Position numbers and translations under genes: made by a program. Below the pieces are notes generated by a model, which ran no database searches, was not told the origin of the DNA, and worked only from the letters and a program-made list of their open reading frames with translations. Below, piece by piece: positions 8,661-12,624 of a stretch of 64,000 nt of DNA. The stretch lies in assembly GCF_027531905.1 (NCBI RefSeq), contig NZ_JAPZSU010000014.1, positions 24,881 to 88,880 of the forward strand, given 5' to 3'. This DNA is from Flavobacterium sp. (GTDB lineage: Bacteria; Bacteroidota; Bacteroidia; Flavobacteriales; Flavobacteriaceae). Each line of letters opens with the position of its first letter. Positions within the stretch are counted from its first letter, which is position 1.

Positions 8661-8769
8661 CTTATTTTGGAGCGGAAAGAATAGGCTTTTTTGTGGTCAT
8701 CGTCCTGCTCTCCGCTATATCTTTGCTTTTTAACCCAAAAAGCAAAGGATGCCGCTGCGATCAGGGCTA
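8661..8769 (-). ncRNA. Flavo-1-like structured intergenic element, copy A (core 8703-8769)
   Basis: TAGCCCTGATCGCAGCGGCATC-CTTTGCTTTTT/AAAAAGCAAAG hairpin-GATATAGCGGAGAGCAGG; homologous to 12879-12988 with compensatory changes; Flavo-1 label from memory only. Confidence 0.55.
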
Positions 8770-8808
8770 AAAGCTGGAAATTGGCTTTCTTGGAGAGAAT
8801 TACAAAAA

Positions 8809-8946
8809 TTAGCTTTTATTATCTAGATACTTTACTACTTTCTTATAAAGTTTTACGACAAAATATACAATTGTAATTAGCAAAACTAAAACAAACAATT
8901 GCCATAAAAACAAACCTATACTTAAATCATTTATAGTTTTTTCCAT
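8809..8946 (-). CDS. Small single-TM protein, 45 aa, not in ORF track (MEKTINDLSIGLFLWQLFVLVLLITIVYFVVKLYKKVVKYLDNKS)
   Basis: Manual translation ATG 8946 to TAA 8809; A-rich translation start; one clear TM helix plus basic tail. Confidence 0.75.
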   Translation of the reverse strand: MEKTINDLSIGLFLWQLFVLVLLITIVYFVVKLYKKVVKYLDNKS

Positions 8947-9016
8947 TTTTTAATCTACTTTTAGAACAGATAGTAATGCTCATCGTTTATTATTAATGAT
9001 TGCTAAAAGGATAACC

Positions 9017-9181
9017 TTATTCACCATTCTTCTTTATTTCTTTTAATTTATATTGATAATATTCCGTTTTAACATCTAAATATTTTTTCACTAAAACATA
9101 AGTTCTTATCAAAAAAAGAATAAAAACAATAACAAGTAAACTTGGTATTAAACTTATCGCTACATCTATAAAATTTTCCAT
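9017..9181 (-). CDS. Small single-TM protein, 54 aa, not in ORF track (MENFIDVAISLIPSLLVIVFILFLIRTYVLVKKYLDVKTEYYQYKLKEIKKNGE)
   Basis: Manual translation ATG 9181 to TAA 9017; starts 2 nt after the stop of the 9184 ORF; TM plus KKYLD. Confidence 0.75.
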   Translation of the reverse strand: MENFIDVAISLIPSLLVIVFILFLIRTYVLVKKYLDVKTEYYQYKLKEIKKNGE

Positions 9182-9183
9182 AA

Positions 9184-10597
9184 TTATTTATTTTTAATAT
9201 TTTTTGTTGTAACACAACATATTTTACCTGTTACCTTATCTACTAATAATTCAATTAATTTTCTTTGCTTTATACCAAACTCAAGCCCTTCCATTTTAAT
9301 TCCGACTAGAATATATCCTGAAATTTGAATTTTGGCAACATCAGTCGAAAATGACGCATCAGATAAAAGCATTGAATTTTGAACCCAATCAAGTCCTACA
9401 ACAGTATTTGATATAAAAGTTTTGGATTCCCCTTTATCAAACGAATATGGTGTTCCTGAATTAGACACAATTTCAATTGATAAATCAACTATAGGAGTTA
9501 ATGGGATTGTCTTTGTAGCCCATATTTGGTTTTGAAGAATTCTAAAATCATTACTATCTGAATAATCACTAACTTCAGTTTTTAATTGTTCCATTACTTC
9601 TAATAGTCCCGAAAAATTGCTTATTAATACAGGATTTGATATCTCTGATTGAGCAACAATTTCAAAACTATCATTGCCAGTAAACCAATATTCAAACTGC
9701 TCTATACTTACATCAGGATTTTGCTTCAAGAAAGCATTAGCCCAATGAGGAAAACTATCATTGCCAAGAATGTAATTTAATCCTTCTAAATTTGGTATAA
9801 TAGAAACTCCTTCACTATCACTTATTCCTGTACCACCCTCACCAGAACCTCCAGAACCTCCTCCTATAACACTTCCTCCTGCATCAATATATACAGGATC
9901 AGGTCCAACTGGTTCGGAACCACATAATCTATAACTTTCATAACCAACACATAAATTACATTGGTCACAAGTGCCACTCGCACAATCACCTGTTCTTGTG
10001 CAATGCCAAAACTCAACAAAAATTGTTGTACAATTAAGTTGGGAACTTCTAGAAGTTTTTCCTGAATTTGATAAATTGGATTGATATAAACGGCTAATAG
10101 TTCCTTCAAATTTGGAATTAACCCCTTGTTTTAAAGATAATAAATACTCCTTAGTTGGTTTTAATTCTACAAGAATACTTTGCCACCCTTGTTTATAAAA
10201 CATGGTTAAGTTATAAATATTATTTGATTTTATGTTCTTAGGATGAACTTGAAAGGTATAGGTTGTCTTCTTATCTCTTACTAACTTTTTGATTACGATA
10301 GTGTCGATAACAAATTCATTTAATACATGCTTGTTTGTATTCTCTTTTTTAAGTCCCGCATCCAATGTCCCATCAATTTTGAATTTGTTTTCGAAATCCA
10401 AAAGTCCTGATTCCTTCTTAAAACGATCAAAAGTAATGTCTTTTTCATTAAAACTACTCTGTTTTTCGAAAGAATCATAACTATCCTTACTACAATTGAT
10501 AAAAAATAAAAAACAAGCCATAACACTAAGATATAAAGTTGCTTTTTTTCTAAAAGGCTGACTTCTTGTGTGTGTGTGTGTGTGTGTGTAATTTCAT
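9184..10597 (-). CDS. Large modular hypothetical lipoprotein, probably phase-variable. True start likely ATG 10597, currently out of frame; the open body is 9184-10521
   Basis: FFINC|SKD lipobox; Cys-rich cluster; Gly/Ser linker; upstream in-frame RSQPFRKKATLYLSV signal n/h-region is separated from ATG 10597 by a (CA)11 tract. Confidence 0.7.
10567..10589. repeat. Dinucleotide microsatellite (TG)11T / A(CA)11
   Basis: Perfect 23-nt alternating tract; the only long dinucleotide SSR I noticed in the window. Confidence 0.98.
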
Positions 10598-10622
10598 AAT
10601 TATTTATATTTGTTAATAAAAT

Positions 10623-10630
10623 CAAAGATA
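10623..10630 (-). promoter_or_regulatory. -7 element (TATCTTTG) for the lipoprotein operon
   Basis: Exact TAnnTTTG 26 nt upstream of ATG 10597. Confidence 0.6.
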
Positions 10631-10879
10631 TTTAAATTTAATTAACAAACATATACCCACATTTAGTGATATTTCAATAAAAAATAAATCTTATAAAATT
10701 CATTTACTGACAAACTACTTTCTGAGTTTCACAAAATTTAGACAAATTACTGCGAGCAACTAATGCCTATATTCTTTTAAAAATAAAACCTTACATTACA
10801 TGTTTTCACACCTGCCAATTTTCAAAAACCTATCAAATTAATAATTCAAAAGAACTATTAAAAAATTCACTTTTCTATA

Positions 10880-11161
10880 CAACGGATTAAAATCCGTTGC
10901 TACAAAATGTTTCGTTCCTACGGAACTAGCACAACCCAAAAAGAGCCGTAGACTCGGCATATATTATAGGGCTGGACTTCAGTTGCTACAAAATATTTCG
11001 TTCCTACGGAACTTGCACACCCCAAAAAGAGTCGTAGACTCGGCATATCTTATAGGGCTGGACTTCAGTCCAGTTAACAGCAAACCATATGAATAAAAGA
11101 GCCATAGGCTCGGTCCATTTTATTTTACAAAAAAAAGCAACGGATTACAATCCGTTGCTAT
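10880..11161. repeat. REP/REPIN-like palindrome cluster including an 86-bp tandem duplication (10896-10981, 10982-11067)
   Basis: GTAG/ATAG-prefixed palindromes (GTAGCAACGGATTTTAATCCGTTG on minus; ATAGGGCTGGACTTCAGTCCAG; ATAGCAACGGATTGTAATCCGTTGCT on minus) with secondary palindromes GTTCCTACGGAAC, GAGCCGTAGACTC, GAGCCATAGGCTC. Confidence 0.85.
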
Positions 11162-11205
11162 AAAAAACATTCTCTCTTTGAGTCTTGTCTATTCTATATA
11201 GAACA

Positions 11206-12624
11206 CTACTCCTTCAACACTTTACGCTGCGTAACATAATACACTGGAATTCCAGTAAGCATAATCAGTACGCCCCAACCACAAGTAGAGAATTTGGTAA
11301 ACAATAACGAAATACAAATTGCCGAAGCAATTACGATATACAAACCTGGCAAAAACGGATAGCCAAACGCTTTGTAAGGACGCTCAGCGTCGGGCATTTT
11401 TTTACGCAGAATAAAAATACCGTAGATGGTCAAAATGTAAAAAATCAAAACAATGATGATTACAAAATCCAATAAATCGCCGTATTTGCCTGTCAAACAC
11501 AATGCCGAAGCCCAAAAACACTGTGCCCAAAGCGCCCAACCTGGTACACTTTTCTCATTCAATTGTGCAGCTTGTTTGAAAAACAAACCGTCTTTTGCCA
11601 TCGTATAATACACTCGGGAGCCCGCCATAATCAATCCGTTGTTGCAGGCAAAAGTCGAAATCATAATCATCACCGCAATAATCACTGTACCATAATCGCC
11701 AAACGTATACTGAGAAGCAACCACCGCTACCCTATCGGATTTGGCTGTAGCAATTTCTTCTATTGGAATAACCGCCAAATACATCAAATTGGTCAACACA
11801 TAAATAATCGTCACAATGAAAGTCCCTAGAAACAAACTCAAGCCCACATTACGTTTTGGATTTTTCAATTCGGCTGCAATAAAAGTAACTCCGTTCCAAG
11901 CATCACTAGAGAATAACGACCCCACCATAGCTGCCGAAATTCCAGTCAATAAAGCCGTTCCTGCAATTGGTGTCCATTGTTTTGTGTCTAAATTATAAGA
12001 TTTGGTTTCCCATACATCCGTCCAGTTTACGTCCCAAACTTCGGCTTTTGCTGCCAGAATGAATCCAAAAACAATCAAACCAAAAAGAGACAAAATTTTG
12101 ATAATCGTAAGCACGGTTTGCAACGTTTTGCTGTCTTTTACGCCGCGACTGTTGAGATAGGTTAAGAAAACAATCGTAATAATGGAAACAATTTGAGCCG
12201 CATTGAGTTGAAAAGCACCCAAATCGAGTAAAATGTTTTCATCGCTCAACGATGGAACCAAATAAGCGGCAAACTTAGAAAAACCTACACCTACCGCAGC
12301 AATAGTTCCAGTTTGAATCACTGCAAAAAAACTCCAACCGAACAGAAACGCAATCAATTTATTATACGCTTCCTTAAGATACACGTATTGTCCGCCAGCA
12401 TTGGGCATCATGGCACTCAATTCGCCATAACTCACCGCAGCAATCATGGTGATTAGTCCAGAAATAATCCAAATTAAAGTAAGCCAAGCAGCTGAACCTA
12501 CTTGTCTGGCAATATCGGCACTTACAATAAAAATTCCTGAGCCAATCATAGAACCTACTACGAGCATGGTACCGTCTAAAAGTCCGAGTTCGCGTTTAAA
12601 ATCTTCGGGTTTGTTGTCTTGCAT
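11206..12624 (-). CDS. APC-superfamily amino acid permease
   Basis: GSMIGSGIF, AAVSYGELSAMMPNAGGQYVYL, ~12 TM, ERPYKAFGYP. Confidence 0.93.
   Translation of the reverse strand: MQDNKPEDFKRELGLLDGTMLVVGSMIGSGIFIVSADIARQVGSAAWLTLIWIISGLITMIAAVSYGELSAMMPNAGGQYVYLKEAYNKLIAFLFGWSFFAVIQTGTIAAVGVGFSKFAAYLVPSLSDENILLDLGAFQLNAAQIVSIITIVFLTYLNSRGVKDSKTLQTVLTIIKILSLFGLIVFGFILAAKAEVWDVNWTDVWETKSYNLDTKQWTPIAGTALLTGISAAMVGSLFSSDAWNGVTFIAAELKNPKRNVGLSLFLGTFIVTIIYVLTNLMYLAVIPIEEIATAKSDRVAVVASQYTFGDYGTVIIAVMIMISTFACNNGLIMAGSRVYYTMAKDGLFFKQAAQLNEKSVPGWALWAQCFWASALCLTGKYGDLLDFVIIIVLIFYILTIYGIFILRKKMPDAERPYKAFGYPFLPGLYIVIASAICISLLFTKFSTCGWGVLIMLTGIPVYYVTQRKVLKE

Follow-up and report, generated by a model that had tools for sequence, protein, structure and literature searches.

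A CA microsatellite in the signal-peptide n-region of a Flavobacterium lipoprotein gene as a probable translational phase switch

The lipoprotein locus and its reading frames

The window, i.e., the stretch of 64,000 nucleotides analysed here (contig NZ_JAPZSU010000014.1, positions 24,881 to 88,880), belongs to a Flavobacterium genome of 3.36 Mb (74 contigs, 35% GC), and carries on its minus strand a predicted lipoprotein gene followed by two small ORFs (Table 1). Read on this strand, the 5' end of the gene comprises TATCTTTG (10630-10623), followed by AATAATT, ATG 10597, AAA, TTA, (CA)11, and AGAAGTCAGCCTTTTAG. The (CA)11 tract is perfect, is situated 9 nt past ATG 10597, and encodes a His-Thr repeat of the signal-peptide n-region; Tandem Repeats Finder reports it at 10567-10589 with period 2, 11.5 copies, and 100% matches. 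The frame of ATG 10597 encodes a 15-codon peptide, MKLHTHTHTHKKSAF, representing the OFF state. ATG 10521 is located 76 nt 3' of ATG 10597, one base out of register, and heads a 445-aa ORF (9184-10521). Upstream of ATG 10521 the same frame remains open for 24 codons, up to a TGA that overlaps ATG 10597, and no in-frame ATG, GTG, or TTG occurs in these 24 codons. All coordinates given for these elements in a preliminary description of the locus (ATG 10597 with A at -3, the -7 box, TAG 10552-10550, and the offset of 76 nt) hold.

In a simulation of tract lengths, n = 9 and n = 12 placed ATG 10597 in frame with the long ORF (MKLHTH..TRSQPFRKKATLYLSVMACFLFFINCSKD) with the product MKLHTH..TRSQPFRKKATLYLSVMACFLFFIN-C-SKD, and n = 10 and n = 13 led into the third frame. 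At n = 9 this agrees with the earlier claim that two fewer units restore the frame. By sequence inspection only, the ON frame carries the features of an SPII signal, namely a basic n-region, a hydrophobic h-region, and a lipobox (..RSQPFRKKATLYLSVMACFLFFIN-C). The corresponding part of homologs is MKK..L[AS][GSN]C, with N at -1 found repeatedly in the family. The residues starting with the lipobox Cys are CSKDSYDSFE in the window and CSEDIYD, CQNEDL, and CEKDLYE in relatives, which resembles the published K-(D/E)2 type of surface-export signal.

CA/TG tracts of at least six units occur only twice in the genome, and (CA)11 is thus regarded as a product of slippage rather than of chance. A length of 11 units is also found in a Logan contig of run SRR22360645, which was built by a second assembler and aligns over 3282 nt at 100% identity; since both assemblies probably derive from a single read set, their agreement is not fully independent, and rare variants are dropped from Logan contigs. 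The second CA tract, (AC)13, is located among REP-like intergenic repeats (C71:97943-97968) and has no coding role. The same applies to (AGAGGTA)12, situated between convergent genes (C9:45582-45666). Furthermore, two contigs of the source genome (C54:2337-2472 and C68:1-136) terminate in (GGTTTTG) with at least 19 units, a repeat that caused an assembly break. On C54 it precedes by 3 nt the ATG of an ORF for a 451-aa membrane protein (C54:979-2334, minus strand) and may represent a promoter or 5' repeat.

The interval from the permease gene to the promoter of the lipoprotein gene contains a tandem duplication of 86 bp (10896-11069, 94% identity) with many short GC hairpins; the ORF-like repeats observed there represent this element. 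In the region 8700-11300, 7 terminator-like hairpins were found compared to 0.8 expected. A tRNA scan upstream of the lipoprotein gene found none.

Table 1. Features of the lipoprotein locus (positions in the window)
Feature	Position	Strand	Remarks
Upstream motif ATCACTAAATGTGGGTAT	10653..10670	-	common to other SSR-lipoprotein genes of the source genome
-7 box TATCTTTG, putative promoter	10623..10630	-	fits the Bacteroidota -7 promoter consensus TAnnTTTG; identical in L013 and L088
Start codon ATG, A at -3	10595..10597	-	same ATG opens intact genes of 471 aa (L088) and 542 aa (L013)
(CA)11 microsatellite, gene out of frame at current length	10567..10588	-	12 units in frame in ortholog
TAG, stop of OFF peptide	10550..10552	-	frame reading
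Remainder of leader, ON frame RSQPFRKKATLYLSV; basic n-region and start of h-region	10522..10566	-	conserved, in frame in L088 and L013
Internal Met (ATG 10521) to lipobox Cys codon (TGT 10494-10492), MACFLFFINC	10492..10521	-	LxxC lipoboxes aligned in family
Lipoprotein gene body: N-domain (~215 aa) with Cys-rich motif, Gly-rich linker, C-terminal domain	9184..10521	-	
54-aa single-TM ORF, 2 nt after lipoprotein stop, candidate immunity or partner gene	9017..9181	-	conserved in L088
45-aa single-TM ORF, paralog-like second small partner	8809..8946	-	

Orthologous alleles and the start codon

In Flavobacterium sp. RSSA_27 (L088), the locus is collinear with positions 11723-8670 of the window (3057 nt) and shares 95.2% nucleotide identity with it. 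Its gene reads ATG CAA TTA GAC (ACA CAC)... AGG, i.e., GA(CA)11 with 12 dinucleotide units, the two ATG codons are 78 nt apart, and translation from the same ATG proceeds in frame into a 471-aa lipoprotein (MQLDTHTHTHTRNQPFRKKVTLYLRVMACFLFFINC...). It had been predicted that one additional CA unit results in a complete SPII signal and a protein of 471 aa, and this allele, like the simulated n = 12, matches the prediction. L013, a syntenic Logan contig with an amino-acid permease gene upstream as in the window, possesses an interrupted tract of 6 units, which is in frame as well (CACACGCACACA) and reads ATG CAA TTA CAC ACG CAC ACA AGG ... (MQLHTHTRSQPFRKKVTLYLRVMACFLFFINC). Among these close relatives the tract number is therefore 11 (OFF) in the window, 12 (ON) in RSSA_27, and 6, interrupted (ON), in L013, and the orthologues with in-frame tract length and HTHT N-terminus that had been anticipated were found in the latter two. 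All three loci share TATCTTTG and a conserved upstream region. Searches of genome contigs and metagenome contigs with patterns of the locus that allowed the tract to vary gave no match.

Repeat-free homologs start with MKK...LxxC, e.g., MKKILKTIVLCALAIFASC and MKKNYFLMLLALVLFLSGC, and align with RKKATLYLSVMACFLFFINC (RKKATLYLSV segment). Due to this alignment, ATG 10521 is considered to encode a Met within the signal peptide and MACFLFFINC to be the tail of this peptide instead of a whole signal, in accordance with the earlier view of a truncated signal. The repeat-free homologs, L013, and RSSA_27 all point to ATG 10597 as the true start of the lipoprotein gene. Gene callers start such genes at the internal Met (MACFLFFINC, MLFIGC), and the annotated proteins are consequently truncated and apparently signal-less, which hides the switch. 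In case of P0008, a truncated N-terminus was considered as a hidden further switch, but it only reflects the start chosen by the gene caller and is in frame.

The comparison of the window to RSSA_27 (dS 0.10) resulted in a dN/dS of 0.225 overall, 0.04 for the N-domain, and 0.39 for the C-terminal part, and that of the window to L013 in a dN/dS of 0.13 for the N-domain. The two small ORFs 3' of the lipoprotein gene are also conserved in RSSA_27. The lipoprotein gene has kept an intact frame and evolves under purifying selection, and due to these dN/dS values and the conserved small ORFs the frameshift is considered recent or reversible rather than an old lesion.

Protein architecture and small membrane ORFs

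Members of the window's family are composed of four parts: a conserved N-domain of approximately 215 aa, the Cys-rich motif HCTGTGxCASGTCDxC, a Gly-rich linker, and alternative C-terminal modules, which in relatives include a Tae4 amidase (E = 1.4e-18) and a SprT-like zincin. P0002 of L013 is 91% identical to the window protein up to the Gly-rich linker, where the homology ends (window position 9849), and continues with a different, SprT-like C-domain. The C-domain of the window in turn recurs in P0007 on a different N-domain. L016 and L017 share the same C-domain followed by a similar 58-aa TM ORF, and other C-domains precede different ORFs.

Sequence searches with the window protein, including its C-domain, revealed no match in Pfam, NCBIfam, or PDB. 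The C-domain is beta-rich, and its AlphaFold model, built from an alignment of 14 sequences, has a pLDDT of 41. A second family of lipoproteins (see below) is of the same build, and its HExxH C-domains match zincin models below threshold; no sequence similarity was found between the first and the second family. The lipoprotein gene and the small membrane ORFs resemble a polymorphic toxin/immunity cassette, and toxicity of the window's C-domain is presumed on this account.

Repeats at the same site in other genes

The same genome contains tandem paralogs on contig C61 with ATG-A-(AAAC)10 (C61:59249-59288) and ATG-A-(AAAC)16 (C61:61317-61380). Both tracts are located in the signal-peptide n-region upstream of lipoprotein frames starting with MLFIGC..., and both genes are out of frame. 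In a third paralog (C5:24594) (AAAC)3 is in frame (MKTNKLKASVLILLTLLFIGC). The C-domains of these (AAAC)n paralogs contain HExxH. Including the (CA)11 gene, the source genome thus encodes three genes of this switch type.

For a survey of both families, 400 species of Flavobacterium were searched. Genus-wide, the second family exhibits (AAAC)3/4/5/10/13/14/16, (AACCA)10, (AAACCAA)4, and (ACAAACC)7, each directly after the start codon, and is ON in case of (AAAC)n with n = 3 and n = 13 and OFF in all others. Within the window's family, G032 possesses two paralogs that have their leader in common, one with G9 in frame (MRKSVFSWGGVFLLLLFLTGC) and the other with G10 out of frame. G089 carries (ACAAACC)7 after a TTG start, out of frame and one unit from ON, and this tract is the sole occurrence in its genome.

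Altogether, 14 tracts were found in 61 leaders of 100 nt compared to 0.036 expected from the density of comparable repeats in the source genome (20 in 3.36 Mb, poly-A/T excluded), a count in which kin are not independent and at least 6 distinct repeat units are involved. Three of the 14 repeat-bearing members are ON, compared to one third expected for random phase (P = 0.26), and a bias toward OFF was rejected for this reason.

L022 (G089) and L056 (G265), members of the two lipoprotein families, which are otherwise unrelated, both carry the heptamer (ACAAACC)7 and encode the same NHKPQTT leader; this suggests an exchange of leaders between families. L095 of RSSA_27 (G425:C13:1-361), syntenic to the C61 locus and located after frr, encodes a different lipoprotein, which is preceded by the common promoter motif and has a leader with ATG-A-(AAAC)3 in frame (MKTNKLKLNAILVTIAILIGLLHSC). 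Promoter and leader thus look like a modular cassette.

Shared upstream motif

Copies of ATCACTAAATGTGGGTAT with at most one mismatch were observed upstream of 7 genes of the source genome (G000), all of them predicted to encode exported or membrane proteins and both C61 (AAAC)n genes among them. An eighth gene, on C5, is preceded by the motif with 3 mismatches. The sites beside that of the window are C61:59174, C61:61241, C5:24477, C14, C22:1562, C23:87710, and C74:59025. The motif takes the form ATCACTAAA[AT]GTGGGTAT(TGT) and is situated approximately 70-105 nt upstream of start codons, with 40-41 nt from its first position to that of the -7 box. Furthermore, it precedes family members in other species. 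At the locus, ATCACTAAATGTGGGTAT is probably a promoter-proximal or regulator site, and it may represent a regulator or promoter element common to those genes.

Proposed mechanism and alternative explanations

The gene at 9184-10597 (minus strand) probably encodes an SPII lipoprotein that starts at ATG 10597 and undergoes slipped-strand translational phase variation by (CA)n in the signal-peptide n-region, within a toxin/immunity-like cassette. Slipped-strand mispairing during replication would add or remove CA units. Tract lengths that are multiples of 3 (n = 9, 12, 15) would encode the whole signal peptide and the full-length protein of approximately 471 aa (ON), and other lengths would end in a stop after 15 codons or in a junk frame of approximately 90 codons (OFF). 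The isolate consensus of n = 11 would accordingly be OFF and one unit from ON, and the polar His-Thr repeat would be tolerated as an extension of the n-region. The slippage rate, reversibility within the population, and surface exposure of the product are presumed. Since MutS and MutL are encoded in the genome, dinucleotide slippage is expected to be partly corrected. The reading of an SSR-switched lipoprotein, put forward from the window alone in the preliminary description, has gained support from the ON alleles of the orthologues, from purifying selection, and from the recurrence of different SSRs at the same site.

An unlikely alternative is non-adaptive decay, in which neutral slippage knocked the gene out, the OFF allele is a young pseudogene, and reversion is incidental. 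In the single genome available for this strain the gene is OFF, as are 11 of the 14 repeat-bearing relatives, and in L054 the tract is degenerate and non-mutable, yet out of frame. Moreover, the second long CA tract, (AC)13 (C71:97943), is intergenic and looks functionless, so that CA tracts can expand in this genome without obvious function, which counts against a switch. However, the out-of-frame genes in both families all keep uninterrupted frames of 450-480 codons despite their AT-rich genomes, dN/dS ranges from 0.04 to 0.39, and the ON fraction fits the one third of free switching. In addition, at least 6 repeat units arose at one 60-nt site in two families, which is hard to explain without selection for mutability.

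Less probable than decay is a switch in the form of the product rather than in its presence. In this case translation at OFF lengths would start at the internal ATG 10521 and yield a protein with the crippled signal MACFLFFINC, which would be cytoplasmic or poorly exported. ATG 10521 lies 29 nt past the stop of the OFF peptide, and Bacteroidota do not rely on Shine-Dalgarno sites. An in-frame Met in the h-region was observed in the window and in 8 of the 13 other repeat-bearing members compared to approximately 6 of 29 repeat-free members, but the Met-bearing members are close kin and the count is not independent. Furthermore, L012, L053, L056, and L022 possess no usable internal start (L022 only MTNC). 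Least probable of all is a miscount of a true tract of 12 units in a gene that is simply ON: polymerase stutter is common at microsatellites and 12 units are present in the ortholog, but n = 11 in two assemblies with 100% identical flanks, though probably from one read set, makes a plain assembler miscount unlikely, and the 22-nt tract is well within read length.

Beyond translational phase variation of the single gene, it is tempting to speculate on a genus-wide "phasome" of independently switching genes in free-living Flavobacterium species, to which we would give slightly less than even chances. It would comprise at least two unrelated families of toxin-like surface lipoproteins with a common promoter motif and leader cassette, in which repeats (CA, G, AAAC, AACCA, and two heptamers) would have evolved repeatedly at one n-region site and by which lineages would stochastically arm or disarm antagonism or phage-receptor modules.

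Comparison with known systems

The slippage mechanism itself is already known from H. pylori oipA and Neisseria opa; convergent repeats, toxin-like cargo, and a common promoter motif are added here. A literature search found no report of SSR switches in lipoprotein signal peptides of Flavobacterium. The nearest precedent in the genus is given by F. psychrophilum with reversible mutations in a 7-bp repeat and in polyA under phage pressure (PMC9804748).

In case of H. pylori oipA, CT dinucleotide repeats in the signal-peptide region mediate slipped-strand On/Off switching, and the repeat number varies by strain (PMC10564699). The likeness, which extends to sabA and hopZ, consists in a dinucleotide repeat in the 5' signal-peptide coding part and the resulting change of frame. 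In contrast to oipA, the gene described here occurs in a free-living or freshwater Flavobacterium instead of a host-restricted pathogen, and the signal is that of an SPII lipoprotein instead of an outer-membrane beta-barrel. Moreover, the repeat is CA, encodes His-Thr, and is located in the n-region, the cargo is modular and toxin-like, and the system is known from sequence alone.

Neisseria opa genes contain CTCTT pentamers that are translated within the signal peptide, the number of pentamers sets the frame, and several paralogs switch independently. Translation of the repeat as part of the signal peptide and the presence of several genes per genome are shared features, whereas the opa repeats form the hydrophobic core and those described here a polar extension of the n-region, with other units, in another family, and in a non-pathogen. 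The H. influenzae loci lic1 (CAAT) and hgp (CCAA) carry tetranucleotide tracts just after the start codon at several loci per genome, and alternative start codons of such loci give graded expression. The (AAAC)n sister genes are similar with respect to the position of the tract just after the start codon and to the number of loci, but lineage and gene functions differ, and the (CA)11 gene lacks an alternative in-frame start upstream of 10521.

Similar to polymorphic toxin systems, the family combines a conserved N-domain with an exchange of C-domains at a Gly-rich linker (Tae4 and SprT-like in relatives), and the small 3' ORFs co-vary with the C-domains. Here, delivery would use a lipoprotein signal instead of T5, T6, or T7 secretion, the C-domain of the window has no recognised toxin fold, and the immunity ORFs are putative.

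Contingency loci based on repeats are commonly described as a means by which host-restricted pathogens adapt to immune pressure, and switching by invertases is a known trait of Bacteroidota. Three repeat-bearing genes of this kind in a single environmental Flavobacterium genome and many more in the genus, always with the repeat at the same signal-peptide site and in genes for polymorphic-toxin-like proteins, suggest that surface weaponry, or phage receptors, may be turned on and off stochastically in freshwater communities too.
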